Counted from the stretch's first letter, positions 2,525-27,777 are shown. The stretch: DNA of 32,000 nucleotides from Nitrosomonas europaea (GCF_900167395.1 NZ_FUWK01000008.1:1-32000); one strand, 5' to 3'. A program made the numbers and translations. Notes: generated by a model not told the origin, from the sequence alone.

Positions 2525-2924
2525 ATATCTAGCGGGAAGATCATGTCGAGATGGCGCATATTCCCGCTATTGATATTACCCGGTACACCGTCGATCAACA
2601 GCTTGATGCCGTTGATGTAGCCTTCGCCGTTGAAGGCGCGGAAGGAGGGCTTGCCGGATTCGGCGCCGAGACGGAATTCGGTCGACTGTATGCCGGGCAT
2701 CTGGCCGATCAATTCCCAGCTGTTCATCACGTTTTTGTCCTGCACACGCTCGGCACCCATTACGTCGACCGAAGTCAGGATGCTGCGTGTTGGCAAGGAG
2801 CCGGTGTTGCCGGAATTGACCGTCACTTCCCCCAGTACGACCATTGACTCCTGTGCCTGAGCGCTGGACAGCGCCAGGGCAATCAGCCAGACGAGCCGGC
2901 TGGGTTTGAATCCGGATTTTTCAT
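2525..2924 (-). pseudogene. 5' fragment of a second TonB-dependent receptor gene (signal peptide plus part of the plug domain). It is truncated by the Tn402-type end and frameshifted in an A-run near the start.
   Basis: The translation ...SGFKPSRLVWLIALALSSAQAQESMVVLGEVTVNSGNTGSLPTRSILTSVDVMGAERVQDKNVMNSWELIGQMPGIQS...FRAFNGEGYINGIKLLIDGVP...LDMIFPLD is plug-domain-like. It loses similarity at 2524/2525. The ATG at 2924-2922 is one nucleotide out of frame with the body; the A5 run is at 2917-2921 (T5 on the plus strand). Confidence 0.75.
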
Positions 2925-2995
2925 TGAGCCAGCCGATGCGCCATACGTGTGCTGGACTTCTGTCGCCAGTCGAAATATCGTGTGCCGATCTGATT

Positions 2996-3328
2996 TCACT
3001 GCTCCTGTTCTGGTACGTAGATCATCGAACCATCCTTGAGGCGAAAAGCTGTTCCGGCTTTGGTGCCTTCTCCTTCTCCGATCTGTCCCGTGGATTTGTA
3101 ATGTTTCAGTTCCTCACCTTGTTTAATGATCATTTCCATGGATGGTTTGCCGGGATCCTTGATGATCACCGCGTCCTGCAGCGTGAACGGATTGAGCGGG
3201 TTTTCCATCACTGCGATCAGCAATACGGCGATGATCACGAGAAAGACATCGATGATATTGACGACACTGAGGATCGGATCATCTCCATCTTCATCTTCCA
3301 GGATTGAAAGCGATCTGCGCTCAGCCAT
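2996..3328 (-). CDS. ExbD/TolR-topology single-pass membrane protein (DUF2149-like), 110 aa.
   Basis: MAERRSLSILEDEDGDDPILSVVNIIDVFLVIIAVLLIAVMENP... consists of an acidic N-terminus, one TM helix and a soluble C-terminal domain, as in ExbD. Its ATG (3328-3326) overlaps the upstream stop within ATGGCTGA, which suggests translational coupling. An alternative ATG is at 3340. Confidence 0.7.
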   Translation of the reverse strand: MAERRSLSILEDEDGDDPILSVVNIIDVFLVIIAVLLIAVMENPLNPFTLQDAVIIKDPGKPSMEMIIKQGEELKHYKSTGQIGEGEGTKAGTAFRLKDGSMIYVPEQEQ

Positions 3329-3830
3329 GAACGACTCCATCCAGGTGAGTGGGTACTTCATGTGAACCGAGGATATGCTCGAGTTCCTCCAGCAACCAGC
3401 GCCGACGGATAGTGAGCACGAAATACGATAGAGAAGCCGTGAGCAGGGCAATGATTACTGCAGAAAAGGCGACGATCAGGCTTTCGGCCATTCCTTGCGC
3501 ATTCCCTGCAGATACCGCAACAAGTGCGGGACCCATTGGAATCATGGTAGCCACCAGCCCGAGCATCGGAGCAACCCGGCTGGTGATGCGCAAAGGCTCG
3601 ATCAGACGGAGCAGTTGCAGCTCCAGCATTTCCTGGGTGGCGGCCGGATGAGCATGCATAAAGAGGACGAGTGGCTGTCTCTGCCTGCTGCCGACAGTAC
3701 GCAGCAATGTATCCATCAGCAGAGTGCCTGCAGTAAACAGGGCATAGATAAACATCAGGCCAAGCACGATCAGGACGGGTGTCAGAAACAGCCGGGAGAT
3801 TTCATAAAATAATGATTCAAGCGCATTCAT
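3321..3830 (-). CDS. MotA/TolQ/ExbB-family proton-channel protein (short form), 169 aa.
   Basis: It has three hydrophobic helices. The segment RITSRVAPMLGLVATMIPMGPALVAV...ESLIVAFSAVIIALLTASLSYFV is typical of the ExbB/TolQ C-terminal core. It sits between the CobN-like and ExbD-like genes. Confidence 0.75.
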   Translation of the reverse strand: MNALESLFYEISRLFLTPVLIVLGLMFIYALFTAGTLLMDTLLRTVGSRQRQPLVLFMHAHPAATQEMLELQLLRLIEPLRITSRVAPMLGLVATMIPMGPALVAVSAGNAQGMAESLIVAFSAVIIALLTASLSYFVLTIRRRWLLEELEHILGSHEVPTHLDGVVHG

Positions 3831-3866
3831 GGTTTTTTAAGTCAGGTCAGTCAGGAATTTTTGTGT

Positions 3867-6800
3867 TTAAGAAAGTTTCAAGCCGGAGAATGCCTGCCGT
3901 TCCCGGTAGGTGCGCCAGGACTGGTAGACAGCGCCTGCAGCGATGATGCCGATGAGCAGCCAGGCATAATTCCACAGGATTTCTTCGATCATTGGCTGAA
4001 CAGGGGTCTCGACCATTTGCTGGCCGCGTACGATGTCCGCAGTCTGTTGTGGTTCAGGTTGTGGATTGGCTTGGCTTTCAACAGGGGTATCGGGGGTATT
4101 CAGACCATAGCCGGCTGCCAGTTCAGCGACATATGCTTTGAAAGTGGCGTTGTCGGTCTGGATATCATGGCGATTTGCGATGTCGGTATAGACCTCGACC
4201 AGTTCGCGTCTGGTCTGTTCGCTTGCTTCCCAGTAATCCTTGCGGATAGCTTCCAGCATGCGTTCAGCGATCTGGGCCAGCGCGGCAGGATTCGATTTCT
4301 CGAACCAGTCACGCATGTCGAGGTTATAACGGTCGGCAATATAGCTCTGGTGAAATTCCTCCCATTGATCATCCCGGGTGATATTACGATCCATGACCTG
4401 CCATCCCCAGAAGTTGTTGATCGTATCGAGCATCTGCAATGTTCCGGAATAGCCTTCTTTCTGCATTTCCCTGATCCAGTTCGGGTGCTGGTAAACCGCA
4501 CGCAATTCCCTGGCCATGAATTTTTCTGCCGACTCAAGCCTGGCGCGTGCCGGATCGCGCAGATTGGAAATATAGAGTTGCGGGCTCGTCCCATCCAGAT
4601 GCCGTACTGCCATCGATATTCCTCCCAGATATTCGAATGGATGATCCGTATCGAGCAGGCCGCGCAGGTTGGATGAACGTGAAAACACTGCAGCACTCGT
4701 GCCGCGCAGATGTTCCGCGTAGGCGTTTATTTCGTTTCCTTTGCCATCGGTAAGTTTCTGGCTCCAGTGTGCCGGGTTCGGCCCGTAAGCCCAGGACATG
4801 CGTGACAGATAGAGGTTCTCGAGCTTGCCGTCCTTCTCGTCCCATTTATCCGAAGCCAGAGTGGCTTGGGTCAGGCGTGTGCTGTAGTCACCACTTTCAT
4901 TGCCAAAAATACGTGTCAAGGCAAATTCCCTGGCCGTTTCAGGTGTTACTCCCAGCTTCTTCAGTTGTGCCCGGATACGCCGGGTATTGGCACGTATGGG
5001 GTTGTCACTGTCGGGTTCGTCCTGTTCAGCCAATAGTGTGATTGCCTGGTTGAATCGTTCCATTACATTTGGAAACTGGTCACGATACAGTCCGGTCAGT
5101 GAAATGACCGTATCGATACGGGGACGCCCCAGCTCGCTCAGGGGAATGACTTCCATACCGGTTACCCGCCCGCCCTCATCCCATACAGGTCGCACACCCA
5201 TGGCATAGAATATCTGTGCCTCGAGCATGCCGAGATGGCGCATGGTTTCAGTGCTCCACATCGAGAAGGCGAGTTTTTCCGGAAATTTGTCGTGCGTGAG
5301 TTTGTAGCTGGCAATCAATTGTTCGACTGCCTGCCCGCCCGCTTCATAAGCCGCACGAGTGGGGACTCTTCCAGGGTCGAATCCGTACATGTTGCGGCCG
5401 GTCGGCAGTGCATCCGGGTTGCGGATCGGGTCTCCACCATACGAAGGATCGATCCAGCGCGATGATAATCCTTTTACGATTGAATCGATTTCCGGGGCTG
5501 CGTGCAGATTCATGCGAAATGTGCGGCCGCGTTCAGCCATCGCTCGCAATCCGGGATCGTTGATATCGTTCAGTGGCTGATCGGAGAAGACATACGTCTC
5601 AACGAAACGATAGGGTTCGGATTGCTGAATTTTGCGGTAATCTTCGCGCAGCAGAGTGCGGGCATCTTCGATACCCAGCAGATCGTAGAGGGGTTGCCCG
5701 AGCATCTGCATGACGTTGCTGATCTGATGAGCCTGTTCCGCATCGCGTCCGAGAGTATGCAAACCCAGTGGCTGCTGGGCTGTCCCGAGATCTTCGAGAT
5801 AATCTTCGATGTCCCGCAAAAAATTGTCGAAATTTCGTTCCAGATCAGCGACTTTCCATTGCATATCCTGATGGATATTCATTCTGACTGCCTGCTCGAT
5901 GATCAGCTTGCGGTTATTGTCGCGCACCAGGCCTTGATCCAGTGACTGGTATTCCCGGATCAGGTCATTGAGCCGGACGAAATCATCGGAGAGACCAGCC
6001 GGAGAAAAGGCAGGCGTCTGATGGCTGATGATGACCCCGCGTCCCCGGCGTTTGACGTGAATGGCCTCGCCGATGTTATCCACGATATAGGGATAGATCA
6101 CCGGCAGGTTGCCAACCAGAATGTTGGGATAGTCATACGCCCACAGACCGCGCTCTTTCCCCGGTGTCCATTCCTGGGTACCGTGTGTGCCAAAATGTAC
6201 GATGGCATCGGCGCTGAATTGTTCGCGTATCCATAAATAGCTGGCGAGATAGGCGTGCCCGGGAGGTTGCCGGGTATCGTGGAACAGTTTCTTTTCTTCT
6301 TCCATACCCGCCATTTCGCCGCGTGAAGGCTGCGGCATCACGACCAGATTGCCCAGTTGCATACGCGGAATCACGAATCCATTTACGCTATCCTTGTGCG
6401 CAAGCCACACGCTTTCTTCCGGATTTCCCCAGCGAGCTTCGATGTCATTTCGCACCGATTCCGGCAAGGTTGCATACCACGCGCGATAGCGGGCAAGCGG
6501 GAGGAAATCCCAATGCGGGGTGCGCATCAGTTCCGGAATACCGCCAGCACGATAGGCTGGTCGCAGCATCTGTCCGACCGTATCGATCATTTGTTGTTCG
6601 GTTACGGCTTCAAAGGCATAGCCTTCCGAACGCAGATGTTCTACCAGATATTCAAGTGACCTGGGTACGTTCAGATTGGAGGCTCCCTGGTTTTTCTCAC
6701 CAGGGGGATGATTCCAGAACAGCAAAGCGACACGTTTATCGGCATTGGCCCTGAGGCTGAGACGTGCCAGATTGATAGCTTTGCCGACCAATAGATCCAG

Positions 6801-8009
6801 CTGTTCCGGCAGAGGAACGAATTCTCCACCTTCGTTGGTAGTGAGTACGACCGGGTCCTGCAATCCGATGTATTCGGCGGTAGTCAGCGTAAAGGGAACG
6901 AAGTAGCTGCCGATCCCGGCGCTGTCCTTCAGATAGTCGGTGCGTGTACCGCCGCGGTAGGAAAGGACATTGATAGCCGGTATACCGAGTGCCTGATGCC
7001 ATGCCTTGCGGTTTTCCGGAGCGCTGCCAAGGAAAGTATTGACGAGTATGACCTGCGGGATGATTTTTCCCTGATAGGTGATGAGCGGCTCATCGATTGT
7101 GATATTCCGACGTTCGGCAGGATTCGGGAAATCGGCACTTCCGCGTGGCTGAACGATATCAACGGGATTTTCCCGGGAGTTGTCTGCTCCGGCGCCGGCG
7201 GATCCTCTTTCGCCAAAACCTCGGTTGCCAGTTGCCCCGGGTCGCCTGTTAGATTCATTGGAACCCGATACCTGCACGGTTGACCCGCGTGATATGCGCG
7301 TGCTGCGGTAAAACACGAGCGGCAATGCGCCTGCCTGCTCCAATGCCGACACGACTTCGTCCAGCATGCGTGTCTGTCCGTCGGCGATATAGGTGGAAGG
7401 GATTTCCATGGCGATCACCGGTCTTTCCAGTGCAGGGTCTGCCATCTGTTTTTCCCACCAGTTCAGATACTCGGGCAGTGTCGGAAAAATACTGTCGGCA
7501 TGCCCCGGGTGATAAATGCCACCATCAGGAAGATCTGCCGGGGGTGGTACTTCGCTCAGATCACCTCCCTGCATCCAGATGCGCAGATAATGAAAAAGCC
7601 TTTCCCGGTTCACTTTCTGGCCGGCTACATAATAGCCGTAGAGTCGTTCGGCAATTTCCGGTGCCAATCGTATCGGGCTGATCTGGCCGCCGAAGGTTTG
7701 AAAGGTGACGACAGGTACAGCAGTTTCGCGCAGCAGCTTGCCGGCGATATGTTCGATTTGTGCCTGATCTTCGGCACGGGGAGCATCGATGATGACCAGC
7801 CGTGCTTCTGCCAGTGCCTTGCGCACTCCCTCTTCACCTTCCCGGTCTGCTTGTACCCAGTGCAGATCGATCCCCGAGCCCTCCGAAGCAGCTTGCATCA
7901 GACGGAACTTGTGTTCCAGGACGAACTGGGTCGACAACAGGGCGACCTTGTGTGCAAAAGCGGCAGGGGCTAGCAGTATCAGTGTGATCAGGAGAAATAT
8001 TCGTTTCAT
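3867..8009 (-). CDS. CobN/ChlH (Mg/Co chelatase large subunit) family protein, 1380 aa, with an N-terminal signal peptide and a C-terminal TM anchor.
   Basis: Family motifs VHFGTHGTQEWTPGKE and DALPTGRNMYGFDPGRVPT are present. The N-terminus MKRIFLLITLILLAPAAFA-HK looks like a Sec signal. The C-terminus WLLIGIIAAGAVYQSW-RTYRERQ looks like a membrane anchor. The ORF is open back to 8066, but the ATG at 8009 gives the signal peptide. Confidence 0.85.
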   Translation of the reverse strand: MKRIFLLITLILLAPAAFAHKVALLSTQFVLEHKFRLMQAASEGSGIDLHWVQADREGEEGVRKALAEARLVIIDAPRAEDQAQIEHIAGKLLRETAVPVVTFQTFGGQISPIRLAPEIAERLYGYYVAGQKVNRERLFHYLRIWMQGGDLSEVPPPADLPDGGIYHPGHADSIFPTLPEYLNWWEKQMADPALERPVIAMEIPSTYIADGQTRMLDEVVSALEQAGALPLVFYRSTRISRGSTVQVSGSNESNRRPGATGNRGFGERGSAGAGADNSRENPVDIVQPRGSADFPNPAERRNITIDEPLITYQGKIIPQVILVNTFLGSAPENRKAWHQALGIPAINVLSYRGGTRTDYLKDSAGIGSYFVPFTLTTAEYIGLQDPVVLTTNEGGEFVPLPEQLDLLVGKAINLARLSLRANADKRVALLFWNHPPGEKNQGASNLNVPRSLEYLVEHLRSEGYAFEAVTEQQMIDTVGQMLRPAYRAGGIPELMRTPHWDFLPLARYRAWYATLPESVRNDIEARWGNPEESVWLAHKDSVNGFVIPRMQLGNLVVMPQPSRGEMAGMEEEKKLFHDTRQPPGHAYLASYLWIREQFSADAIVHFGTHGTQEWTPGKERGLWAYDYPNILVGNLPVIYPYIVDNIGEAIHVKRRGRGVIISHQTPAFSPAGLSDDFVRLNDLIREYQSLDQGLVRDNNRKLIIEQAVRMNIHQDMQWKVADLERNFDNFLRDIEDYLEDLGTAQQPLGLHTLGRDAEQAHQISNVMQMLGQPLYDLLGIEDARTLLREDYRKIQQSEPYRFVETYVFSDQPLNDINDPGLRAMAERGRTFRMNLHAAPEIDSIVKGLSSRWIDPSYGGDPIRNPDALPTGRNMYGFDPGRVPTRAAYEAGGQAVEQLIASYKLTHDKFPEKLAFSMWSTETMRHLGMLEAQIFYAMGVRPVWDEGGRVTGMEVIPLSELGRPRIDTVISLTGLYRDQFPNVMERFNQAITLLAEQDEPDSDNPIRANTRRIRAQLKKLGVTPETAREFALTRIFGNESGDYSTRLTQATLASDKWDEKDGKLENLYLSRMSWAYGPNPAHWSQKLTDGKGNEINAYAEHLRGTSAAVFSRSSNLRGLLDTDHPFEYLGGISMAVRHLDGTSPQLYISNLRDPARARLESAEKFMARELRAVYQHPNWIREMQKEGYSGTLQMLDTINNFWGWQVMDRNITRDDQWEEFHQSYIADRYNLDMRDWFEKSNPAALAQIAERMLEAIRKDYWEASEQTRRELVEVYTDIANRHDIQTDNATFKAYVAELAAGYGLNTPDTPVESQANPQPEPQQTADIVRGQQMVETPVQPMIEEILWNYAWLLIGIIAAGAVYQSWRTYRERQAFSGLKLS

Positions 8010-8145
8010 GTATCTGTTGTCATGTACAAAGAATGTAAATCGGTTACCGCCATCAGATTGATACATTCCATGCCGTCCCGGACCAATTGGCTGTAAGTGG
8101 TTTCTGCTGATAGGAACGTGTCGTCATTTGGCTGGATGCCGTGTG

Positions 8146-10419
8146 TCAGAATCGCAAATTGACTTGCGCGACATAGTTGCGGCCAGTACTGATCAGCGAT
8201 TGGAAATAGCGCTCATTCAGCAGGTTGTTTGCGGCAAAGCTGAGCTCGGCCATTTTGTTCCAGGTATAAATGAGTTTGGTATCGAGCAGCCAGAAAGCCT
8301 GATTTCCCCCGTAAACATTGTGAAAGACATCGATGTTTTCTGCGGTATTGAAGGATTTTGATACATGACGGCCGGTCAGGCTGCCTGACCAGTCGTGCCA
8401 GTTGGTTTCCAGCCCGGCAGTCAGGATATGTTTAGGGCTGTTTGGCATCCGTTTGCCTTCGGAATCGGGGCTGGCGCTGTTTTTCAGTGTTCTGGCGGTT
8501 GGCGTCCAGGTATAGTTGGCGTGGAGCTTGAGCCAGCCGGTCAGTACCTGATCGACCGAGAGCTCGATTCCGCGTGTGATCCCTGTCCCTGCATTGACAT
8601 CGGTCGCTTCCCGCAGGGTAGTGGTAAATGTCAGATTTTTTGAAGTAATGAGATCGAACAGGCGGTTTTCAAAGAAAGTGGCCTTGAGCCGGGTGCCGGT
8701 TGCAGCCAGGTGTTGTTCGATGCCTGCTTCCCAGGAGAGTGCGGTTTCAGGTTTCAAACTGGCATTGGCATAATTTATGACAACTCCTCGTCTGGAATCG
8801 GCAAACATATCCTGCAGTGTCGGCGGGCGGAATGCGCGTCCGGCCGAGGCACGCAGTACTCCGCCTTGCCAGGGTGCCTGATACACCAGTGCAAGTTTCG
8901 GGCTGATTTCAACGACTGACTGTTTTTCGGTAGGTTTGACCACGCCAGTCTGCAGATTCCTGCTTTTCCCTTCAGCCGTCCACCAGTCCAGTCGTGTGCC
9001 AAAGTAGGCGGTCAGACGATCGGTCAGAAAGATTTCATCCTGAACAAAAAATGATGTAGTCAGGCTTTCCGAGTCGCCGGTGAGGTTGAGGGCGGTGCGA
9101 GAATCGATGTCCTGCCAGTTGCTGAGTGTGTATTCACGCCGTTTTAACGTGCCATGTTCAACTTGGAATCCGGTGGTGAGAAAGTGACGGTCGCCGAGAT
9201 GAAACGAATACATTCCCTGGCCGTTGATCAATTGCTGGGGGCGGTGTGCGGAGGTGCCCGGGCCACCATCGAATGTGGAATTCTGTCCGACCAGGGTTGA
9301 CCAGTAACCGCGCGACAGGTGATTGAAGCTCAGTGAAAATTTGGAATGATTGGCAAATTCATGTTCGAAATCCAGAAAGCTGCGCAGATCATCTTCGTGG
9401 GTTTCGGCATTCAGAAAAAGTGAAGGAGTGATTCGGCCCAAGATTGTTCCACCAACATTGACTGTGCCGCTGATAACCGTATTGCCGCCGGGATCACGCA
9501 GATATGAGGTCGGATTTTCCGATCTGACATCAGAAAAAAGGTAGCGCAATCCGCCCGAGATGCGGGTAGTCGGACTGAAATCATAATAAGCTTTGATTTG
9601 TCCGACATGGTAATTCCACGGCACGTTGCCACGATCTCCGATCTGGAAAGTGGGTGTACCATTGGTAGTGTGCGTCGGGATTGCACCGGTGACGCGAGTG
9701 CCTTGCGGACCTGCCTGATTGGTAGCCGGATCGCTGAAAGACCAGCTGTCCCTGTAGCCACTGCTCGTTTCATAGCGATAGCCGATGCTGATGGCTAGCC
9801 CGTTATCGAAAACATCACGATAAACTGCGCTGCCGTAGCCACTTTCAGGTGAATTGAACTGGTAGCCGCCAGTCAGCGAAATTTCTTTTTCGGTTGGCTT
9901 CTTTGAAACCACCCGGATGACACCGGCAAAAGCATTGCCGCCATAAAGCGCAGAAGCAGCACCCGGAATGACTTCGATGCGTTCGATATCTTCCGGAAAC
10001 AGGGTAGCCCAGTTGAAGGTTCCGAATGCGGGGTCGTTCATTTTCTGGTTGTCCAGCAAAACCAGCGTTCTTGAGACACCTGAGACTCCGCGGATCGAAA
10101 TACGGTTGCCGCGATTTGCCGAGGGCGCCTGGCTGCCCTGACTGGCTCCCCAGATATAGACGCCTGGTGTTTCCTGCAGGATGTCACCGGCACGGCGTAC
10201 GTTGCGTAACCGGATTTTTTCTTTGTCGAACAGGTGCAATGTGCCGGGAATTTCTTCGATGGATTTATCAGAGAGTGTGGCTGAGATGACCATGGGATTG
10301 AATACGACAGGTTCATCTTTCTTTTTGGAGATACCTGCTTCGTGTGCAGCGTACAGAGCGTTGGGAGATAACGGCAGTGTGAGGTTTGAAACGAGGAAAA
10401 TACAGGCGGTTTTCTTCAT
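8146..10419 (-). CDS. TonB-dependent outer-membrane receptor, 757 aa.
   Basis: Evidence: a signal peptide MKKTACIFLVSNLTL...ALYA; a TonB-box-like NPMVISAT; plug motifs (IPGTL..., ISIRGVSG.RTLVLLDN, IERIEVIPGAASALYGGNAFAGVI); and a beta-barrel ending in ...YVAQVNLRF with the terminal Phe. The ORF also allows a TTG start at 10428. Confidence 0.9.
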   Translation of the reverse strand: MKKTACIFLVSNLTLPLSPNALYAAHEAGISKKKDEPVVFNPMVISATLSDKSIEEIPGTLHLFDKEKIRLRNVRRAGDILQETPGVYIWGASQGSQAPSANRGNRISIRGVSGVSRTLVLLDNQKMNDPAFGTFNWATLFPEDIERIEVIPGAASALYGGNAFAGVIRVVSKKPTEKEISLTGGYQFNSPESGYGSAVYRDVFDNGLAISIGYRYETSSGYRDSWSFSDPATNQAGPQGTRVTGAIPTHTTNGTPTFQIGDRGNVPWNYHVGQIKAYYDFSPTTRISGGLRYLFSDVRSENPTSYLRDPGGNTVISGTVNVGGTILGRITPSLFLNAETHEDDLRSFLDFEHEFANHSKFSLSFNHLSRGYWSTLVGQNSTFDGGPGTSAHRPQQLINGQGMYSFHLGDRHFLTTGFQVEHGTLKRREYTLSNWQDIDSRTALNLTGDSESLTTSFFVQDEIFLTDRLTAYFGTRLDWWTAEGKSRNLQTGVVKPTEKQSVVEISPKLALVYQAPWQGGVLRASAGRAFRPPTLQDMFADSRRGVVINYANASLKPETALSWEAGIEQHLAATGTRLKATFFENRLFDLITSKNLTFTTTLREATDVNAGTGITRGIELSVDQVLTGWLKLHANYTWTPTARTLKNSASPDSEGKRMPNSPKHILTAGLETNWHDWSGSLTGRHVSKSFNTAENIDVFHNVYGGNQAFWLLDTKLIYTWNKMAELSFAANNLLNERYFQSLISTGRNYVAQVNLRF

Positions 10420-10451
10420 GATAAACAAGTCGTTGTTGAATTCTTTTTTTC

Positions 10452-10481
10452 ATTATTGTGTTTAACGCGTTGTTTGATCAA
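10452..10481 (-). promoter_or_regulatory. Putative sigma70 promoter for the TBDR/CobN-like operon.
   Basis: On the minus strand: TTGATC (10481-10476), an 18-nt spacer, then AATAAT (10457-10452), about 30 nt upstream of the ATG at 10419. The -35 overlaps the outer end of the 21-bp repeat. Confidence 0.35.
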
Positions 10482-10498
10482 TGTGACAAATTGTCGCA
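10478..10498. promoter_or_regulatory. Left copy of a perfect 21-bp inverted repeat that contains a 17-bp near-palindrome (operator-like).
   Basis: TCAATGTGACAAATTGTCGCA is the exact reverse complement of 10622-10642. The internal palindrome is TGTGACAA-A-TTGTCGCA, with 7 of 8 symmetric pairs. Confidence 0.7.
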
Positions 10499-10621
10499 GC
10501 CAGGGCGTCTGCAGCATTTCCTGAGGCAAATTTCAAGGTCATCGACGGATGAACGGGGAGTCTTTACGGGTCGATAATTGCCTTGCAGCTGTGGGGAATG
10601 TATGAGGGTTCGATATGCCAA

Positions 10622-10642
10622 TGCGACAATTTGTCACATTGA
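10622..10642. promoter_or_regulatory. Right copy of the perfect 21-bp inverted repeat (operator-like).
   Basis: TGCGACAATTTGTCACATTGA. It lies 123 bp from the left copy, and its outer TTGA runs into a TTGACC -35-like hexamer. Confidence 0.7.
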
Positions 10643-10666
10643 CCCTGAATCGGAAAAAAATAGAAT
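10639..10666 (+). promoter_or_regulatory. Putative sigma70 promoter facing rimP.
   Basis: TTGACC (10639-10644), a 16-nt spacer, then TAGAAT (10661-10666). Confidence 0.35.
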
Positions 10667-10894
10667 ATTTATGATCGATTTCGAGGCAGTACAGGAGTTG
10701 CGATATTGCTGTTTCGATTTCGTTGTCTGAAATTTTGAAAATAAATGACTTTATCCGTTTGTGTAAGGATATTGGTGCATCTGTTTATGTTGATGGGATA
10801 AACTGTATATCAGTGGATTTTTGAAGAGAGGTTTTGATAACCTATTGGAAACATTGGTGTAATATAAATTTCTGTTTTTATGAGTTGCAATTCT

Positions 10895-10903
10895 TGCTAT
10901 AAT
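10895..10903 (+). promoter_or_regulatory. Extended -10 promoter element upstream of rimP.
   Basis: TGCTATAAT fits the TGnTATAAT pattern. It lies 58 nt before the rimP ATG, and AT-rich DNA lies upstream. Confidence 0.45.
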
Positions 10904-10923
10904 GGCAAGCATGGTTTTGAGGG

Positions 10924-10949
10924 TGGGCTGGTTAGCCCATTTTTTATTT
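10924..10949 (+). terminator. Intrinsic-terminator-like hairpin plus T-tract in the rimP leader (possible attenuator).
   Basis: TGGGCT-GGTT-AGCCCA (6-bp stem, 4-nt loop) is followed by TTTTTTATTT. It ends 11 nt before the rimP ATG. Confidence 0.5.
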
Positions 10950-10960
10950 GTGGTGAGACT

Positions 10961-11392
10961 ATGTCATTGTTTGAGCTGCTCGAACCAACGATTGCGGGCA
11001 TGGGATACGAGCTGGTCGATATCGAGCAGTCTGCTCCTGGCAGGTTGTTGCGGGTATTTATCGATAAAAAAGAGGGATCGATAACGCTCGACGACTGTGT
11101 TGCTATCAGTAATCATTTGAGCCAGTTGCTGGCAGTCGAGAATATCGATTATAACCGGCTTGAGGTTTCTTCTCCGGGTCTGGATCGGCCATTGAAGAAA
11201 AAGGCTGATTTTGTTCGTTATATGGGGGAATCGGCGCGGATCAGGCTGCGAATCGCCTTGCAGGGGCAAAGAAATTTTGTGGGAACACTGGTCGAAGTGA
11301 ATGATGATGTCCTGACATTGAATGCTGATGGAAAATTGTTGCAGATTGAATTGAGAAACCTGGAAAAGGCTCGGCTGATTCCAAAATTGTGA
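10961..11392 (+). CDS. rimP: Ribosome maturation factor RimP, 143 aa.
   Basis: [22 protein letters not shown]...[14 protein letters not shown]... matches RimP, and the gene lies immediately upstream of nusA. The internal ATG was chosen over the ORF-track start at 10880. Confidence 0.9.
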
Positions 11393-11444
11393 TTCTGGTA
11401 GATCTGACGATGGGTTTGGGGTTGAAAAATAGGGCTGGAGGAAT

Positions 11445-12917
11445 ATGAGCCGCGAGATTTTACTGTTGGTCAATGCTTTGGCGCATGAGAAGAATGTGGA
11501 TAAAAATATCGTTTTTACCGCACTCGAAATGGCGCTGGCTTCTGCTGCCAAGAAGCATACCCGGGATGATATTGACGTGCGTGTCTCGATCGATCGTGAT
11601 ACCGGTGGATTTCACTGTTTTCGCAGATGGCTGATCGTTGCAGATGATCCGGTAGAGCACCCGGAGCGGCAAATTACGGTGAGTGAGGCTGTAGGGCGCA
11701 ATCCACAGGCTGTTCCTGGGGAATATATAGAGGATCTGATGGAGGATGTCACTTTTGACCGGATCGGTGCACAGGCTGCCAAACAGGTCATTTTCCAGAA
11801 GATACGTGATGCCGAGCGCGAACAGAATCTGAATGATTTTCTTGATCGCGGGGAATATCTGGTGTACGGCGTGATCAAGCGTATGGACCGTGGAAATGCA
11901 ATCATTGAGTTTGGCAAGATCGAAGCAGTTCTGCCACGCGACCAGATGATTTCACATGAAAATCTGCGCATGGGCGACCGTGTCCGTGCCTATCTTCTGA
12001 GAATCGATCGGTCGGTGAGAGGGCCACAGCTGGTATTGTCCAGGACTTCACCGGCGTTTCTGGCCAAACTGTTCGAGCTTGAAGTGCCCGAGATAGAAGA
12101 GGGGATTCTGGAAATCAAAGCAGCAGCGAGAGATCCTGGTTCCAGAGCAAAAATCGCTGTCAAATCGAATGACAGTCGCGTGGATCCGATCGGTACCTGC
12201 GTGGGTATGCGCGGTTCGAGAGTACAGGCAGTTACCAGTGAGCTTGCCGGTGAGCGGGTGGATATCATTCAGTGGTCGGATGATCAGGCCACATTCGTCG
12301 TAAATGCTTTGGCACCCGCTGTGATCAGCAGCATCGTGGTGGATGAGGAGAAGCATTGTATGGATATCGTGGTGGATGAGGAGAATCTGGCTCAGGCCAT
12401 CGGCCGGGGCGGGCAGAATGTCCGGCTGGCATCTGAATTGACGGGCTGGCAGCTCAATATCATGACAGAGGAAGAGTCACAGGAAAAAACTGAAGAAGAA
12501 GCTGCTTCCATTTGTGAGCTGTTCATGGAGAAACTTGATGTCGATGAAGACGTCGGGCGTATCCTGGTGGAAGAGGGATTCTCCACTCTGGAAGAGGTCG
12601 CCTATATTCCAATTGAAGAAATGTTGGAAATACAGGAGTTTGATCGTGAGACAATTGAGGAGTTACGTAACCGTGCCCGTAACGCCTTGTTGACGGATGC
12701 CATTGCGACTGAAGAAAAAATTGGCCATGCGTCCGAAGCGCTGCTTGCCCTGGAAGGAATGGATATCGAGCTGGTGCGTGAATTGGCGGAAAAAGGGATC
12801 AGTACTCAGGAAGAGCTTGCTGATCTGGCGGCAGATGATCTGGTCGAATTGACGGGCATAGACTTTGAACGTGCAAGTAAAATTATCATCAAGGCACGTG
12901 AACCCTGGTTCGCATGA
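11445..12917 (+). CDS. nusA: Transcription termination/antitermination factor NusA, 490 aa.
   Basis: N-terminus [18 protein letters not shown]..., S1 and KH regions (GDRVRAYL..., [35 protein letters not shown]) and C-terminal acidic repeats. GGAGG precedes the ATG. Confidence 0.95.
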
Positions 12918-13017
12918 TTCCCGGTCAGGGCCGGATAGTCTCGTACATGCGGGCAGGGAAAAGGGAATGTTTGTTGTGTTTTCGGATTTTTGTTGGATTT
13001 GAAGTAAAAGGTTGCTG

Positions 13018-15681
13018 ATGACTCAAATGACTGTAGAGCAATTTGCGCATGATCTGGGTATGTTACCCGGCTTGTTGCTGGAACAGCTTCAGGCTGCCGG
13101 GGTAGATAAACGTTCTGCAGCAGATTTTGTCACGGAGCAGGATAAGACCCGGCTTCTCGATTATCTGCGTAAATCGCATGGAAGTAGCGGACCAAGAACC
13201 AGGATCACTCTGGCGCGTAAACAAACGACAGAGATAAAACAGTCAGACAGCACAGGCAGGCCGAGGACCATTGAGGTCAAAGTCAAGAAAACGCGGGTGC
13301 TGACCAGACAGAATGAACCTGAGGTGATTGAAAAAAGTGTGAGTGAAGAACCCGCACCTTTGAAAATGGTCGAAACGCCGGAACCGACGATTGTAAAGTC
13401 GGTTGTCGATGCTGAGCAGATGGCCTTGCGTGCTGAAGAAGCCAGGAAAAGATCAGAGTTGATTGCCCGTCAGGCTGCTGAGCTGAAAGAAAAGCAGGAA
13501 AAAAGGAGACAACAGGCAGCTGCTCAGGCGAACGTGAAAAAAGAACCGGCCCCGGCTGAGCAGGAATCTGGGCCGGCGACAGCTGTCACGCCGGGATCAG
13601 TGACTGAAATTTCATCCAAATTGCCGGAAACAGGTGCTGCAGCCACGCCTGCTACTTCAACTGCTCCAGCGACAACCTCGACGACTGCAGCGACCAAGGG
13701 ACATGCTCCTCAGAAACCGGTTGTCAAACCGGAAGAGAAGGGTGAAAAGAAAAAGAAGCCAACCAAGCAGGATGCCTGGAAGGATGAGCCGGTCAAACGT
13801 CGTGAACCGAAAGCACGTGGTGATCTGTCTGGCGGGCAGGAATGGCGCATGCGTAAGGATAAGCACGGCAAATATAAGTCAGATGAATTGCAATCCCAGC
13901 ATGCTTTTTCGGTACCTACTGAACCGGTCATTCATGAAGTCTTGATTCCTGAAACTATTTCAGTGGGAGCTTTGGCGCAGAAAATGGCAGTCAAAGCAGC
14001 AGAGGTCATCAAGGTACTGATGAAAATGGGTAGTATGGTGACGATCAATCAGATGCTCGATCAGGAAACTGCCATGGTCGTCGTCGAGGAGATGGGGCAT
14101 ATCGCCAAGATTGCTGCGTCGGATAATCCCGAGTCTTTCCTGGAGGAGGTTGATGTATCTTCCGATGAAGCCAGGATGGAACCACGCGCCCCTGTAGTCA
14201 CGGTGATGGGACACGTCGATCATGGTAAGACCTCGCTGCTCGACTATATTCGCAGAACCCGTGTTGCAGGAGGGGAGGCCGGTGGAATTACCCAGCATAT
14301 TGGTGCCTACCATGTCGAAACTTCACGCGGGGTGATTACATTTCTCGATACGCCAGGACATGAAGCGTTTACTGCGATGCGGGCTCGCGGTGCCAAGATT
14401 ACCGATATCGTCATACTGGTTGTGGCTGCGGATGATGGTGTGATGCCCCAGACGATTGAAGCCATTCACCATGCGAAGGCGGCGAATATCCCTATTGTCG
14501 TGGCGGTCAACAAAATGGATAAGCCGGAAGCCAATTTTGATCGTATCAAACAGGAACTGGTCAATCATGGTGTCGTCCCCGAGGACTGGGGAGGTGATGC
14601 CATGTTCATTGGTGTTTCAGCAAAAACCGGTCTGGGAATCGACGAATTGCTGGAAGCAGTTTTATTGCAGGCAGAAGTGCTGGAACTCAAGGCTGTCCGG
14701 GAGGCGCCAGCCAAAGGCGTGGTGATCGAATCCCGTCTGGACAAGGGGCGTGGTCCGGTTGCGACGGTTCTAGTTCAATCTGGCACTTTGAGACGGGGTG
14801 ATGCGGTTCTGACTGGAGCCGTGTTTGGAAAAATCAGGGCCATGCTGAATGAGCGGGGTAAATCCATCAGTGAAGCGAGTACCTCGATTCCCGTTGAGAT
14901 TCAGGGGTTGTCAGAAGTCGCAGTTGCCGGAGAGGTATTTATTGCGTTGGATGATGAGCGCAAGGCTCGCGAGATTGCTCTTTTTCGCCAGGGTAAATTC
15001 CGTGATGTGCGACTGGATAAGCTTCAGGTGGCAAAAATGGAGGATGTATTCGGTCAGCATGAGGACGTCAGTACACTTAATCTGATCATCAAAGCAGATG
15101 TGCAGGGATCTTGCGAAGCACTGGTCTATGCGTTGAAGAAGCTGGAAACCGATGAAGTGAAAATCAATGTCGTGCACAGTGGAGTGGGAGCGATCATCGA
15201 ATCTGATATCAATCTGGCTCTGGCATCCAAGGCTGTCGTCATCGGGTTCAACTGTCGTGCCGATCTGGGCGCGCGCAAGCTGATCACTTCAACCGGGGTG
15301 GATGTGCGCTACTACAACATCATTTACGAAGCGGTCGATGAAGTCAAAAAAGCATTGTCAGGAATGATGATGCCGGATCGCAAGGAAAAAATCCTGGGTA
15401 TGGTCGATATTCGTGAAATTTACCGGATATCCAAGGTCGGAGTCGTGGCCGGTTGTTATGTGCTCGAAGGATTGATCAAACGTGATGCGCTGGTAAGGTT
15501 ATTGCGCGATGGTCTGGTCATCCATAGTGGTAGTCTGGATTCTCTGAAAAGATTCAAGGAGGATGTTCGGGAGGTGAAATCCGGTTTCGAATGCGGGCTT
15601 TCATTGAAGAATTTCAATGATATTCAGCAGGGTGATCAGATCGAGGTGTATGAGATTGTTGAAACTGCTCGTGTGCTGTGA
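13018..15681 (+). CDS. infB: Translation initiation factor IF-2, 887 aa.
   Basis: GTPase motifs ([26 protein letters not shown]) and a conserved C-terminus ...[17 protein letters not shown] lies 6 nt before the ATG at 13018; a TTG at 13012 is also in frame. Confidence 0.95.
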
Positions 15682-17179: not shown

Positions 17180-17821
17180 ATGACCACAGGCCCATCACCG
17201 ATTGAGATGCTGACAGCCAGGAACCTGGAGTGTATACGAGGGGAGCACAGACTCTTCAGTAATCTCTCTTTTTCCGTAAATCCCGGTGAGCTGATGTTTG
17301 TGGGTGGCCCCAACGGCAGTGGCAAAACCAGCCTGCTCAGATTGTTGTGCGGATTATCTTTGCCTGATGATGGGGAAATTTACTGGAATGGAACTGATAT
17401 CCGGAAGCTGGGAGTGGATTATCGCGACGTGATGACTTACCTGGGGCATCTGGGAGGCATCAAGGATGATCTGACAGCTATCGAGAATCTGCGGATATCT
17501 TGCGCACTGGCAGGTTGTGAGATCGATGAGGATCAGGCGGCAGATGCATTGGGGCAGATCGGGCTGGCTGGACGTGAAATGCTGCCCGCCAGAGTGTTGT
17601 CGCAAGGGCAGCGCAGGAGAGTGGCTCTGGCTCGTTTGCTGGTGACTCGAACCAAGTTATGGATCCTGGATGAGCCCTTGACTGCTCTTGACGTTGCAGC
17701 GGTGGAGCTGATCAAAGGCATACTGGAGCATAATCTGGCAAAAGGAGGTATGGTCATTATGACTACTCACCAGGAGCTCGTGATGAGCACTGTGACGGTG
17801 CATCATTTGGTCTTGTCCTGA
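17180..17821 (+). CDS. ccmA: Haem exporter ATP-binding protein CcmA.
   Basis: Walker A GPNGSGKTSLLR, ABC signature LSQGQRRRVALA and Walker B LWILDEP. It is the first gene of the ccm cluster. Confidence 0.9.
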   Translation: MTTGPSPIEMLTARNLECIRGEHRLFSNLSFSVNPGELMFVGGPNGSGKTSLLRLLCGLSLPDDGEIYWNGTDIRKLGVDYRDVMTYLGHLGGIKDDLTAIENLRISCALAGCEIDEDQAADALGQIGLAGREMLPARVLSQGQRRRVALARLLVTRTKLWILDEPLTALDVAAVELIKGILEHNLAKGGMVIMTTHQELVMSTVTVHHLVLS

Positions 17822-17827
17822 TTCGAT

Positions 17828-18487
17828 ATGATCTGGTGGATAATCAAGCGGGATTTGTTGCTGGCAATGCGTCGACGTTCCGACGTGCTGACGACCCTGT
17901 TCTTTTTTGTCATCGTTGTCAGCCTGTTCCCGCTGGGTGTGGGGCCTGAGGCTAGTATATTACGGATAATGGCATCGGGTGTGGTATGGGTGGCTGCTTT
18001 GCTGGCTTCGATGTTGTCGCTGGGCCGTATGTTTTCCAGTGATTATGCGGATGGAACTCTGGAACAGATGCTGCTTTCCCCGGTTTCTCTGTCTGCGTTG
18101 GTCATGGGTAAAGCAATATCACACTGGCTGGTGACCGGGGTTCCGCTGGTGCTGATGGCACCGGTATTGGGGATCCAGTACGATTTGCCGGTAGAGGCAT
18201 TGATTGTGCTAACGCTCTCACTGTTGTTGGGGACGCCTGTGCTGAGTCTGATTGGTGCGATCGGTGCTGCGTTGACATTGGGGTTGAGGGGAGGGGGTGT
18301 ACTGGTATCGATACTGGTTCTGCCGCTCTATATTCCTGTGCTGATTTTTGGAACAGGCGCAGTCGAGGCAAGTACTGCCGGAATGGGGTTCGGGGCGCAT
18401 TTTTCGATATTGGGTGCATTTTTATTGGTTTCCATCGTTTTTTCACCTTGGGCGACTGCTGCATCTCTCCGGATTTCCATGGGCTGA
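17828..18487 (+). CDS. ccmB: Haem exporter membrane protein CcmB.
   Basis: A 219-aa polytopic protein starting MIWWIIKRDLLLAMRRRSD..., positioned between ccmA and ccmC. Confidence 0.9.
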   Translation: MIWWIIKRDLLLAMRRRSDVLTTLFFFVIVVSLFPLGVGPEASILRIMASGVVWVAALLASMLSLGRMFSSDYADGTLEQMLLSPVSLSALVMGKAISHWLVTGVPLVLMAPVLGIQYDLPVEALIVLTLSLLLGTPVLSLIGAIGAALTLGLRGGGVLVSILVLPLYIPVLIFGTGAVEASTAGMGFGAHFSILGAFLLVSIVFSPWATAASLRISMG

Positions 18488-18591
18488 TCTCAGCAATCAG
18501 GGCTGCAAGTAGCGGATGGTGAGGTATTTGGTAAGGTAAAAGCAAGTAATTTCGTTTTCTGCCGGATTAATTAAGAGAGAATATTCAGGAC

Positions 18592-19335
18592 ATGACAATC
18601 AATTGGTTTAAATATGCCTCTCCCGCGAGTTTTTATTTTCTGGCGGGGCGGATGATTCCCTATTTTTCCATTGCGGCAATCATTTTTCTGATCGTGGGCC
18701 TGTATATCGCCTTTTTTTCTGCCCCGACCGATTTTCAGCAGGGTGAGGCCTACCGGATTATTTTTATCCATGTTCCAGCTGCCTGGATGTCGATGTTTTT
18801 GTACGTAGTCATGGCATTCTGGGCCGGGATAGGACTGGCGTTCAATACCCGTCTTTCATCCATGGTGGCAAGTGCCATAGCACCGACGGGTGCCATGTTT
18901 ACTTTCCTTGCTTTGTGGACGGGGGCATGGTGGGGTAAGCCGATGTGGGGAACATGGTGGGTCTGGGATGCCCGTTTGACTTCCGAATTGATTTTATTTT
19001 TTCTGTATATCGGTTTTATGTCATTACAGGCCGCAATCGATGACCCAAGGCGTGCGGACAAAGCCGGAGCCATTATTGCTCTGGTTGGGGTGGTCAATAT
19101 TCCGATCATTTATTTTTCGGTTCAGTGGTGGAATACCTTACATCAGGGTGCCTCAGTCAGCCTGATTCAATCACCCAAAATGGCAACTGCCATGCTGTCG
19201 GGCATGTTGATCATGGCGCTGGCGGTATGGATGTACTCGATTGTAATGATTCTGATTCGGGCCCGTCTCATCATTCTGGAGCGTGAACGCCACACGGCAT
19301 GGGTGTCAGAATTGAAAGAAGGAGTGTTGGAATGA
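18592..19335 (+). CDS. ccmC: Haem exporter / haem lyase component CcmC.
   Basis: Trp-rich motif WGKPMWGTWWVWDARLTS and conserved His residues. Confidence 0.9.
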   Translation: MTINWFKYASPASFYFLAGRMIPYFSIAAIIFLIVGLYIAFFSAPTDFQQGEAYRIIFIHVPAAWMSMFLYVVMAFWAGIGLAFNTRLSSMVASAIAPTGAMFTFLALWTGAWWGKPMWGTWWVWDARLTSELILFFLYIGFMSLQAAIDDPRRADKAGAIIALVGVVNIPIIYFSVQWWNTLHQGASVSLIQSPKMATAMLSGMLIMALAVWMYSIVMILIRARLIILERERHTAWVSELKEGVLE

Positions 19336-19514
19336 AATGGGAGAGCGTATCTGATTTCTTTGCCATGGGGGGGTATGGCCTTTATGTATGGGGATCTTAC
19401 CTGGTTGCAGTATTGTGTGTAATTGGCGAGATTATCGCGATTCGTATTCGTAGGCGAACTTTATACAAGCATCTCGGTCTGAGAAAAAGATCAATTCTGC
19501 GAGGAGAGAAATGA
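19332..19514 (+). CDS. ccmD: Cytochrome c maturation protein CcmD, 60 aa.
   Basis: [30 protein letters not shown]... is a single-TM protein. ATGA overlaps occur with the ccmC stop and with the ccmE start. Confidence 0.8.
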
Positions 19515-19960
19515 AGCCACGTCATAAAAAAATGGCTGTCATTGCATTGAGTGTCAGTGCTTTGACAGTTGCAGTCGTATTGGTACTGAACGCATTTCAG
19601 AGTAATCTGGTTTTTTTCTTCAGCCCCAGTCAGGTGGCTGCCAAAGAAGCTCCTATCGGAAAAAGTTTCAGAATAGGTGGGCTGGTGGAAGAAGGCTCAC
19701 TCAAGAGGGAGGGAGATGGTACAACTCTGAATTTTGCCATAACCGACACTGCTGAAGTCATTCGAGTGGTTTATACAGGGATTCTTCCCGATCTGTTTAA
19801 AGAAGGGAAAGGTGTCGTGGCACAAGGAAAAATGGCAGATGACGGTATTTTTTATGCTGATGAAGTGCTTGCCAAACACGATGAAAATTATATGCCGCCC
19901 GAAGCTGCCAGTGCACTGGAGCAGGCGGCCAAAGCACAGAAAACCTCACTTGCGCAGTGA
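19511..19960 (+). CDS. ccmE: Haem chaperone CcmE.
   Basis: An N-terminal anchor, an OB-fold body and the haem-binding [12 protein letters not shown] motif. Confidence 0.9.
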
Positions 19961-20001
19961 GTTTGTTCATTTCGTAATTTAACAAGGGATAACTTCAAAC
20001 C

Positions 20002-22053: not shown

Positions 22054-22574
22054 TGCGATTTCTGCTGCCTCTCGCGGCATTTGTAGTACTGGTGATATTT
22101 TTGGGGGTTGGCCTGACTTTGAACCCGCGTCAGGTTCCTTCTCCACTGGTGGATAAACCCGCGCCGCCTTTCCGTCTGCAACAGCTCTACGATACTACTA
22201 AGACGCTTTCATCCGAAGAAAATCTTGGAAAGGTATGGATGCTGAATGTCTGGGCATCCTGGTGTGTTGCCTGTCGCGATGAGCATCCTGTGCTGGTTGA
22301 GCTTTCAAAACTGGGTATCGTTCCCATTTATGGTCTGAATTACAAGGATCAGCGCGATACCGCCATGCAATGGCTCAAACAGTTTGGTAACCCTTATGAA
22401 ATCAGTATCGTTGATGCGGATGGGAAAGTTGGTATCAATTATGGTGTTTACGGTGTGCCGGAGACTTATGTGATTGATAAACAAGGAATTATCAGGTACA
22501 AACACATTGGTCCGGTAACAGTCGAATCACTGAAAAACAAAATTCTTCCTTTAATCAAGGAACTGAAGAGTTGA
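22050..22574 (+). CDS. ccmG: Thiol:disulfide interchange protein CcmG/DsbE.
   Basis: An N-terminal anchor, WASWCVACRDEHP (CxxC) and the GVYGVPETY motif. The start overlaps the ccmF stop (ATGA). Confidence 0.9.
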   Translation: MMRFLLPLAAFVVLVIFLGVGLTLNPRQVPSPLVDKPAPPFRLQQLYDTTKTLSSEENLGKVWMLNVWASWCVACRDEHPVLVELSKLGIVPIYGLNYKDQRDTAMQWLKQFGNPYEISIVDADGKVGINYGVYGVPETYVIDKQGIIRYKHIGPVTVESLKNKILPLIKELKS

Positions 22575-22581
22575 GCTGGTC

Positions 22582-27701: not shown

Positions 27702-27777
27702 TGGTGGCGAATCAGGGATTTGAACCCCGGACCAACGGATTATGATTCCGCTGCTCTAACCACTGAGCTAATTCGCC
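27702..27777 (-). tRNA. tRNA with a CAT anticodon (Met, or Ile2 after lysidine modification), 76 nt with an encoded CCA.
   Basis: The minus strand reads GGCGAAT-TA-GCTC-AGTGGTTA-GAGC-A-GCGGA-ATCATAA-TCCGT-TGGTC-CGGGG-TTCAAAT-CCCTG-ATTCGCC-ACCA, a clean cloverleaf. A G1:C72 pair rules out an initiator tRNA. Confidence 0.9.

Follow-up and report, generated by a model that had tools for sequence, protein, structure and literature searches.

A predicted periplasmic, HmuS-like CobN-family protein and its ExbB-like/DUF2149 partners in Nitrosomonas europaea

What does a protein named after a cobaltochelatase subunit do between the gene of a TonB-dependent receptor (TBDR) and a pair of genes resembling those of a proton channel? 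The question is raised by a four-gene cluster in a 32-kb stretch of Nitrosomonas europaea DNA (GCF_900167395.1, NZ_FUWK01000008.1:1-32000, hereafter the window), where a TBDR gene is followed on the same strand by genes for a 1380-aa protein of the CobN/ChlH family (CobN-like), a short MotA/TolQ/ExbB-family protein (ExbB-like) and a DUF2149 protein. The original prediction, made from the sequence alone, held the CobN-like protein to be exported, anchored in the membrane and wired to the receptor and to the ExbB-like/DUF2149 pair, the proton-motive force being used for insertion or removal of a metal in an imported tetrapyrrole. Our analysis confirmed the observation and partly supported its interpretation. 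On balance, we lean towards a periplasmic module of the HmuS type, tethered to the inner membrane, which would strip the metal from a chelate imported by the receptor and have the pair as its dedicated membrane partner. The four co-directional minus-strand open reading frames (ORFs) described there were recovered with their translations, which fit the families named (coordinates in Table 1). The gap between the CobN-like and ExbB-like genes is only 36 nt, and the overlap reported between the ExbB-like stop and the DUF2149 start amounts to 8 nt (3321-3328).

Both CobN/ChlH-family motifs that had been quoted for the 1380-aa protein occur in its translation, which matches PF02514, the six-domain CobN/Mg-chelatase body. 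Its best solved relative is HmuS, the periplasmic haem de-chelatase of B. thetaiotaomicron (PDB 9d26; Nath et al. 2025, PMC12583661), with E 3e-132 in a single-sequence search; in a family-profile search HmuS likewise ranked ahead of CobN and ChlH (8.5e-157, 7e-126 and 9e-120, respectively). For a neighbour-joining tree the set was completed with two Bacteroides HmuS sequences, one bona fide CobN (from a cobU-cobW-cobN-cobO context) and one bona fide BchH. All exported CobN-like proteins split from cytoplasmic CobN and BchH (87/100), a deeper node that is indicative only since outgroup sampling was thin, and the proteobacterial, Nitrospirales and Trichlorobacter sequences stood apart from Bacteroides HmuS (99/100). 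As far as these sequences indicate, the module would be widespread in proteobacteria and sister to the HmuS-HmuU-HmuV set of Bacteroidota. When the HmuS sequence (PMC12583661, Appendix Fig. S6) was aligned with 41 family members, the site-2 residues H538, E577, D1208 and H1209, which form His/carboxylate dyads and are implicated in catalysis, were found invariant in all 41. H538 and H1209 correspond to H609 and H1123 of the window protein. The window protein also matched NCBIfam NF004644 (2128 bits), an equivalog dedicated to this clade and titled 'cobaltochelatase subunit CobN', a name that is very probably wrong as to function.

CobN and ChlH (BchH) share the PF02514 six-domain body and superfamily-wide catalytic residues with this protein, but they are cytoplasmic, contain cysteines, have AAA+ and vWA partners and are encoded in biosynthetic operons. 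Neither the cytoplasmic location nor the cob/bch operon context was found here. The CobN-like protein starts with MKRIFLLITLILLAPAAFA, followed by HKV, and ends with a hydrophobic helix and the basic tail WRTYRERQ, features that had been read as a Sec-type signal and an anchor. The N-terminal h-region and the C-terminal helix both scored hydrophobic and, among 119 full-length CobN-like homologues (58-99% identity), the N-terminal segment was kept in 109 and the C-terminal one in 116. An AxA-type small-x-small (-3,-1) site directly preceded the conserved mature N-terminus xKVAxLST in 86 of them, and homologue N-termini (MKR...) favoured the start at 8009 over the one at 8066, with which the protein might have been retained. 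The mature body of about 1300 residues (30-1330) contains no Cys in the window protein and likewise none in 107 of the homologues, compared with seven in S. meliloti CobN and nine in Thiodictyon BchH, both cytoplasmic. Signal, anchor, (-3,-1) site and Cys-free body support the predicted export of the chelatase-like body and its tethering to the inner membrane, as had been proposed.

An extracytoplasmic body with N- and C-terminal hydrophobic tethers is also what characterises the HmuS family, and by prediction it is present here. HmuS of B. thetaiotaomicron and P. gingivalis, which has the same architecture, was found by experiment to be membrane-bound and exposed to the periplasm (PMC12583661, PMC13227078), although the N-terminus of the N. 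europaea protein resembles a cleavable signal rather than an anchor. In the region of the C-terminal helix G1359 and Q1363 were invariant, with a VRGQ motif about 30 residues upstream; these invariant positions would fit a specific intramembrane contact. Two minor features of the protein were recorded. A Gly/Ser/Arg/Asn-rich low-complexity stretch (7050-7277, residues ~245-320) lies between the head and neck regions, varies in length and sequence among homologues, ends at a conserved GFPNP motif and is probably a disordered linker. In some homologues (P0110, P0114, P0117) a DUF3325 domain is fused to the N-terminus.

The absence of an AAA+ chelatase partner, claimed for the window, was borne out there and extended to relatives. 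No AAA+ (CobS/ChlI) or vWA (CobT/ChlD) subunit appeared among the domain matches of the window, nor within 10 kb in 80 related loci, scanned with one genome per species (38-82% identity; Beta-, Gamma- and Alphaproteobacteria, Nitrospirales). No AAA+ chelatase-type gene recurred over that distance; among P-loop families, only ABC ATPases and a COG0523 GTPase were repeated. The latter, a CobW-like G3E GTPase, occurs in two Burkholderiales loci (L011, 16466-17599; L013), some 2.3 kb downstream from the cluster. COG0523-type genes are typical of zinc-starvation regulons.

Gene neighbourhoods distinguished the pair from the receptor. The ExbB-like and DUF2149 genes adjoined the CobN-like gene on the same strand in 66 of the 69 loci with enough flank (62 downstream, 4 upstream); linkage was scored from domain coordinates, greedy ORF calling having misjudged it in high-GC loci. 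A same-strand TBDR lay within 3.5 kb of the CobN-like gene in 50 of 55 loci. The linkage expected by the original prediction was in this respect found, but the receptors themselves are non-orthologous, the window receptor sharing at most 27% identity, over partial lengths, with receptors beside CobN-like genes elsewhere. A conserved receptor partner was ruled out both for the upstream receptor and for a downstream receptor present in sister strains, and the TBDR to which the CobN-like protein was said to be wired is not a conserved partner. The trio of CobN-like protein and pair also occurred without an adjacent receptor (L001, Azospirillum and Comamonadaceae plasmids). The conserved unit is the CobN-like protein with the pair, and the receptor is an exchangeable front end. 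In about 25 loci, receptor and CobN-like genes were separated by 0.6-2.7 kb (mostly ~1.5 kb) which, where examined, held canonical short ExbB, ExbD and TonB genes. Canonical ExbB, ExbD and TonB clusters were co-encoded, besides the pair, in 32, 37 and 23 loci, respectively (examples confirmed with Pfam), and in T. lovleyi the canonical set and the pair belong to one operon. Since the pair is linked to the CobN-like gene, the receptors are interchangeable and canonical ExbBD-TonB sets are co-encoded, the pair is probably more than an energiser of the receptor.

The nature of the pair was approached through profiles and models. The families named in the original prediction were recovered for the CobN-like and DUF2149 proteins, but the ExbB-like protein scored 22.5 bits against MotA_ExbB, just under the Pfam cut-off of 22.9; most of its homologues carry PF01618. 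It aligned with ExbB over the second and third transmembrane helices (TM2-TM3; hhalign E 1e-3) and displayed a PxxGLxxT-type TM2 motif. Its AlphaFold2 model (predicted local distance difference test, pLDDT, 82.7; predicted template modelling score 0.71) had TolQ/ExbB chains for all of its top 31 PDB matches, with weak statistics (Foldseek E at least 0.09, TM-scores 0.35-0.5). In the DUF2149 protein a transmembrane Asp was invariant in 74 of 74 sequences and fell on the essential transmembrane Asp of ExbD by profile-profile alignment with hhalign (E 5e-4, 21 columns), while Pfam gave no PF02472 match. Its model (pLDDT 62) displayed a small beta domain, was of low confidence and was too poor for a fold search. 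DUF2149 proteins are 70-87% identical across genera and form a small family (385 representatives at E ≤1e-3 among 1.84 billion).

By resemblance, the pair is a putative TolQR/ExbBD-like complex. It would share with the proton-driven ExbB-ExbD and TolQ-TolR stators a three-helix subunit with the TM2 motif and a TolQ/ExbB-like fold, a single-pass partner with a conserved transmembrane Asp, and translationally overlapping genes. It differs from them in three respects: the ExbB-like protein is shorter (169 aa versus 220-240), the DUF2149 protein has a small all-beta C-terminal domain that is not recognisable as ExbD, and the only membrane-anchored protein co-conserved with the pair is the CobN-like one. 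No TonB/TolA-type force-transducing partner accompanies the pair.

A further conserved element was found upstream of the receptor gene, where 450 nt hold two inverted exact copies of AATGTGACAAATTGTCGCA (0.01 expected by chance) and a third match, with three mismatches and on the opposite strand, overlapping the same palindromic site. Homologous units in other genera are preceded by its 17-bp core, TGYGACAANTTGTCRCA, at a distance of 50-110 nt from their first gene; the bearers are another Nitrosomonas, N. eutropha, Methylotenera, two Thiomicrorhabdus species and a Francisella-like metagenome-assembled genome (MAG). In N. eutropha sites precede both the receptor and the CobN-like gene. In T. 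marina (L027) a perfect copy is found on each of three separate units, composed of receptor and CobN-like genes, of a second receptor together with PepSY_TM and DUF3325 genes (these two next to the cluster, at 11246-13356), and of the ExbB-like and DUF2149 genes. The 7-1-7 architecture is that of Fur-family boxes, whereas the sequence follows neither the Fur nor the Zur consensus. As judged by this conservation, the palindrome is a candidate operator that a repressor would bind. Its half-site presumably resembles the CusR/CopR box, with a spacer of 1 nt instead of 2 nt.

An RNA was considered as well, the 21-nt inverted pair being able to fold into a long hairpin (z = -3.7), yet in other genera only one copy is present, at the corresponding position near the promoter, which makes an operator the better reading. 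The region upstream of the receptor gave no Rfam match at the gathering threshold or at E ≤5, and no cobalamin riboswitch. A promoter scan upstream of the TBDR gene was not above chance, and a de novo search for dyads enriched ahead of the operons yielded nothing but conserved palindromes within coding sequence of high-GC relatives. A promoter-like site facing rimP (10639-10666, +), from a scan likewise not above chance, overlaps the distal palindrome.

In metagenomes, 108 of the 127 exact palindromes were intergenic, about 100 chance matches being expected by rough estimate. Their neighbours coded for receptors, PepSY_TM proteins, PCuAC copper chaperones and many unknown or phage-like ORFs. 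A PCuAC gene is divergent from a receptor gene at the same palindrome in Thiomicrorhabdus heinhorstiae (L025, 6478-7377), and another lies directly downstream of the palindrome in a metagenome contig (L139, 2076-2576). The PCuAC neighbours hint at a copper-related regulon, weakly so because of the number of chance matches expected in the metagenome collection. In fifteen loci a DUF2946 gene precedes the receptor; in Bordetella, DUF2946 is reported as the context of the copper transporter CrtA (PMC9426467, PMC12914433). Fur-like boxes precede the receptor only in loci of a distant clade (L068, L074, L076). Different lineages lend some indirect support to different metals, namely iron, zinc or cobalt, and copper.

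The gene arrangement is not new: it is the proteobacterial counterpart of hmuR-S-(T)-U-V and has the gene order of PA1922-PA1925 of P. aeruginosa, a known operon type. The parallel with hmuR-hmuS, already drawn in the original prediction, extends to the pair, since hmuU belongs to the MotA/TolQ/ExbB family and hmuV to DUF2149 in P. gingivalis and Bacteroides (PMC11681262), assignments also given by the RefSeq annotation of B. finegoldii. Both systems have a receptor gene upstream, an exported CobN-family protein with terminal membrane segments and site-2 dyads, no AAA+ partner, and HmuU-type and HmuV-type genes downstream. Equivalents of R, S, U and V are thus present in N. europaea, but neither the haemophore HmuY nor HmuT. 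The regulatory motif also differs from that of the Bacteroidota loci, and N. europaea is aerobic.

The original prediction overlooked both the precedent of HmuS as a de-chelatase and the PA1922-PA1925 operon, a member of the Zur regulon (PMC4542158). That operon codes for a TBDR, a CobN-like protein, a member of the MotA-ExbB family also labelled 'ExbD', and a DUF2149 protein (PMC4542158, PMC9431628), in the same four-gene order as here (gene table of PMC9431628). Pseudomonadaceae relatives (L043, L054) fall within the clade of the window protein, with 54-55% identity. In P. aeruginosa a Zur box accompanies the operon, which Zur binds in vitro and whose expression rises 44- to 147-fold in a znuA mutant or under zinc starvation (PMC4542158), unlike the window, where the TGYGACAANTTGTCRCA palindrome follows neither the Zur nor the Fur consensus. 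The role of the P. aeruginosa operon has been called undetermined, import of zinc or cobalt being guessed (PMC4542158, PMC8531726, PMC9431628, PMC10393844, PMC11761036, PMC13083405). A more distant case was noted in 2012 on plasmid pSZ77 of Trichlorobacter (Geobacter) lovleyi, where CobN, without CobS/CobT, lies beside TonB genes and was given no known role (PMC3403914). This cobN-exbB-exbD-tonB cluster also has flanking receptor genes and, according to RefSeq, MotA/ExbB and DUF2149 genes immediately adjacent, but the pair precedes CobN, a DUF2162 gene is added, the cluster lies between cobalamin biosynthesis clusters and the protein is only ~33% identical. In the literature cited on these operons, we found no link between the proteobacterial operon and the de-chelatase result for HmuS.

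These elements suggest the following mechanism for an HmuS-type module. Through the TBDR, a metal chelate would enter the periplasm, with a metallated tetrapyrrole as precedent. There, the Sec-exported CobN-like protein, held by its C-terminal helix in the inner membrane, would remove the metal by means of the His-carboxylate dyads that it has in common with HmuS, and the freed ion would reach the cytoplasm through ordinary inner-membrane importers. The ExbB-like and DUF2149 proteins would form a TolQR/ExbBD-like channel complex, acting as partner of the CobN-like protein rather than of the receptor, and a repressor on the conserved upstream palindrome may set expression under metal limitation. 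The data themselves establish the family, the export signals, the conserved catalytic residues, the linkage of the genes, the lack of AAA+ partners and the conserved operator; we infer the de-chelatase activity, the nature of substrate and metal, the physical coupling to the pair and any use of the proton-motive force. As HmuS is a demonstrated periplasmic de-chelatase, removal of a metal, and not its insertion, is the precedent.

Several observations weigh against this reading. The axial ligands of the non-substrate haem at HmuS site 1, Met79 and His254, by which the HmuS family is defined, are not conserved, their columns being Ala/Val/Thr and mixed; a by-eye alignment placed Pro77 and Leu327 opposite them, and before residue 330 H167 is the sole invariant His and no Met is invariant. 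The Met-rich insertion of domain IV is also absent (58 residues with 3% Met, versus ~220 with 11% in HmuS). With site-1 ligands and insertion missing, the chemistry may differ from that of HmuS. A truncated HmuS is able to turn over haem in vitro in the absence of HmuU/V, a reductant being sufficient (PMC12583661), so that catalysis itself does not require the pair, and the likeness of the pair to ExbBD is weak in profile score, alignments, Foldseek matches and the DUF2149 model alike. No Zur-like site (TGTTATANTATAACA-like, up to two mismatches) was found in the window or the 80 loci and no canonical Fur box in the window, so the zinc link of P. aeruginosa is not transferable; moreover, PA1923 is taken for a counterpart on identical annotation and gene order. 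Activity, substrate and metal of every proteobacterial member are so far putative. Finally, the locus is decaying in sister strains (see below) and may be dispensable.

A bolder version of the HmuS-type module, closer to what was originally proposed, makes the pair a proton-driven stator and the C-terminal helix of the CobN-like protein its force-transducing partner, which together would replace the AAA+ ChlI/ChlD motor of cytoplasmic chelatases, the proton-motive force supplying the conformational work of removing or inserting a metal in the imported macrocycle. The linkage data lend circumstantial support to the proton-motive force as a substitute for AAA+ proteins, while the in vitro catalysis by HmuS with a reductant alone speaks against it, and we regard this version as possible, if rather unlikely. 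If true, the same machine would work under different metal regulons, governed by Fur in some clades, by Zur in P. aeruginosa and by the palindrome here.

The pair may instead energise the adjacent TBDR, as in the HmuU/HmuV-HmuR model of Nath et al., the CobN-like enzyme then taking no energy from it. This is what the HmuS authors assigned to HmuU/V (PMC12583661, Fig. 1 legend), PA1924 was similarly read as the ExbD of PA1922 (PMC4542158), and the model agrees with the MotA/TolQ/ExbB superfamily membership of the pair, with the activity of HmuS in vitro in its absence (PMC12583661) and with the lack of a canonical exbBD-tonB set in the window cluster itself. Yet no TonB-like gene comes with the pair, the DUF2149 protein has no recognisable ExbD periplasmic domain, many loci encode canonical ExbB, ExbD and TonB in addition, and the pair tracks the CobN-like gene, even where no receptor adjoins, while the receptors are exchanged. 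We consider this explanation tentative and not a likely one.

That the protein is a straightforward HmuS orthologue, a haem-iron de-chelatase giving access to external haem as an iron source, appears unlikely. HmuS is indeed its best solved match and the site-2 residues are kept; the best NCBIfam match of the window receptor, below threshold (165 bits versus a 317-bit cut-off), is TonB-hemin; and the three distant loci mentioned above have Fur-like boxes. Against it stand the missing Met79/His254 ligands and Met-rich insertion, the lack of HmuY and HmuT, and the window without Fur box. Nitrosomonas is an obligate aerobe. HmuS turnover, on the other hand, requires ferrous haem and anoxia (PMC12583661), and the P. 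aeruginosa counterpart answers to zinc, not iron (PMC4542158, PMC8531726).

Equally improbable in our view is a non-enzymatic CobN-like protein that would bind the ligand in the periplasm and hand it from the receptor to the pair complex for transport into the cytoplasm. Such an alternative was raised for HmuS/HmuTUV of P. gingivalis (PMC13227078); a likeness to periplasmic binding proteins was noted for the head and neck domains (PMC12583661), and Pfam revealed no dedicated periplasmic binding protein or ABC importer in the cluster of the window. The catalytic dyads are, however, completely invariant, and the H538A substitution in HmuS abolishes turnover while binding is kept (PMC12583661). 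A permease made of a 169-aa three-helix protein and a single-pass partner is also unlikely, and HmuT, the putative permease, is missing here.

A CobN subunit of aerobic cobaltochelatase for B12 synthesis, as NF004644 and the source annotations have it, is extremely improbable, being already contradicted by the topology evidence (signal peptide, C-terminal anchor, Cys-free body), by the branching apart from CobN/BchH and by the lack of cob genes and CobS/CobT in the window and the 80 loci, where the true context would be cobU-cobW-cobN-cobO, and of a cobalamin riboswitch.

The HmuS-type module would have consequences beyond this locus. Hundreds of proteobacterial proteins called 'cobaltochelatase subunit CobN', and one NCBIfam equivalog, are probably misnamed and appear to be periplasmic and HmuS-like. 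A hypothesis of metal extraction from an imported chelate would tie PA1922-PA1925, unexplained since 2015, as well as the related operons of nitrifiers, methanotrophs and sulfur oxidisers, to the work on HmuS. Tight linkage to the CobN-like gene, loose linkage to the receptor and co-encoded ExbBD-TonB sets offer a means of testing which of the two, receptor or enzyme, is powered by HmuU/V-type pairs.

Comparison of strains revealed a locus in decay. Three N. europaea genomes or MAGs (L207, L208, L209), 99% identical to window positions 2525-11500, share a frameshifting deletion of 25 nt in the receptor gene (9476-9500) that leaves separate Plug and barrel ORFs. In addition, the CobN-like gene is split in L208 and an insertion sequence (IS) separates the CobN-like and ExbB-like genes in L207, whereas all four genes are intact in the window. 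The locus is evidently dispensable under conditions that the sister strains have met. Two of the three strains have an intact second receptor gene (657 aa) after DUF2149, which ends the operon. In the window this gene is cut after about 107 codons, near 2525, leaving a Plug-fragment ORF (2461-2844). Foreign low-GC DNA with a resolvase gene (599-1159) lies beyond the break, and positions 1-249 correspond to the end of an IS, the one by which the locus is interrupted in strain CP157069.1.

Table 1. Positions of the cluster genes and associated features in the window
Feature	Position	Strand	Details
TonB-dependent receptor (TBDR)	8146-10419	-	757 aa; Plug E 4e-23, beta-barrel E 8e-49 (Pfam); intact in the window
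Exported HmuS-like/CobN-family protein (export predicted)	3867-8009	-	1380 aa; PF02514 E 2e-295
Short MotA/TolQ/ExbB-family protein, HmuU/PA1924 counterpart	3321-3830	-	169 aa; three long helices
DUF2149 protein, HmuV/PA1925 counterpart	2996-3328	-	110 aa; DUF2149 E 2e-28; one transmembrane helix, then small periplasmic domain
Predicted Sec-type signal peptide of CobN-like protein, residues 1-19 (MKRIFLLITLILLAPAAFA, then HK)	7953-8009	-	Hydrophobicity and homologue conservation
Predicted C-terminal anchor helix of CobN-like protein, ~residues 1344-1362, then basic tail WRTYRERQ	3924-3980	-	
Distal palindrome copy, 17-19 bp (AATGTGACAAATTGTCGCA; core TGYGACAANTTGTCRCA), candidate operator	10622-10640	.	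Motif match
Proximal palindrome copy, directly beside the -35-like hexamer of a promoter-like sequence of the TBDR gene	10480-10498	.	
Plug-fragment remnant of second TBDR	2525-2844	-	Pfam and sister-strain comparison; cut off by mobile DNA

The rest of the window contains rimP-nusA-infB-rbfA-truB, bcp, mdh and other housekeeping genes besides the resolvase. At 7 kb from the cluster there is a complete ccmABC-E-F-G-H-I operon (17180-24419, +), which serves cytochrome c maturation (haem export); as other genera do not keep it next to the cluster, the proximity is probably coincidental. The only Rfam match of the window is a single tRNA gene (27705-27777, -).

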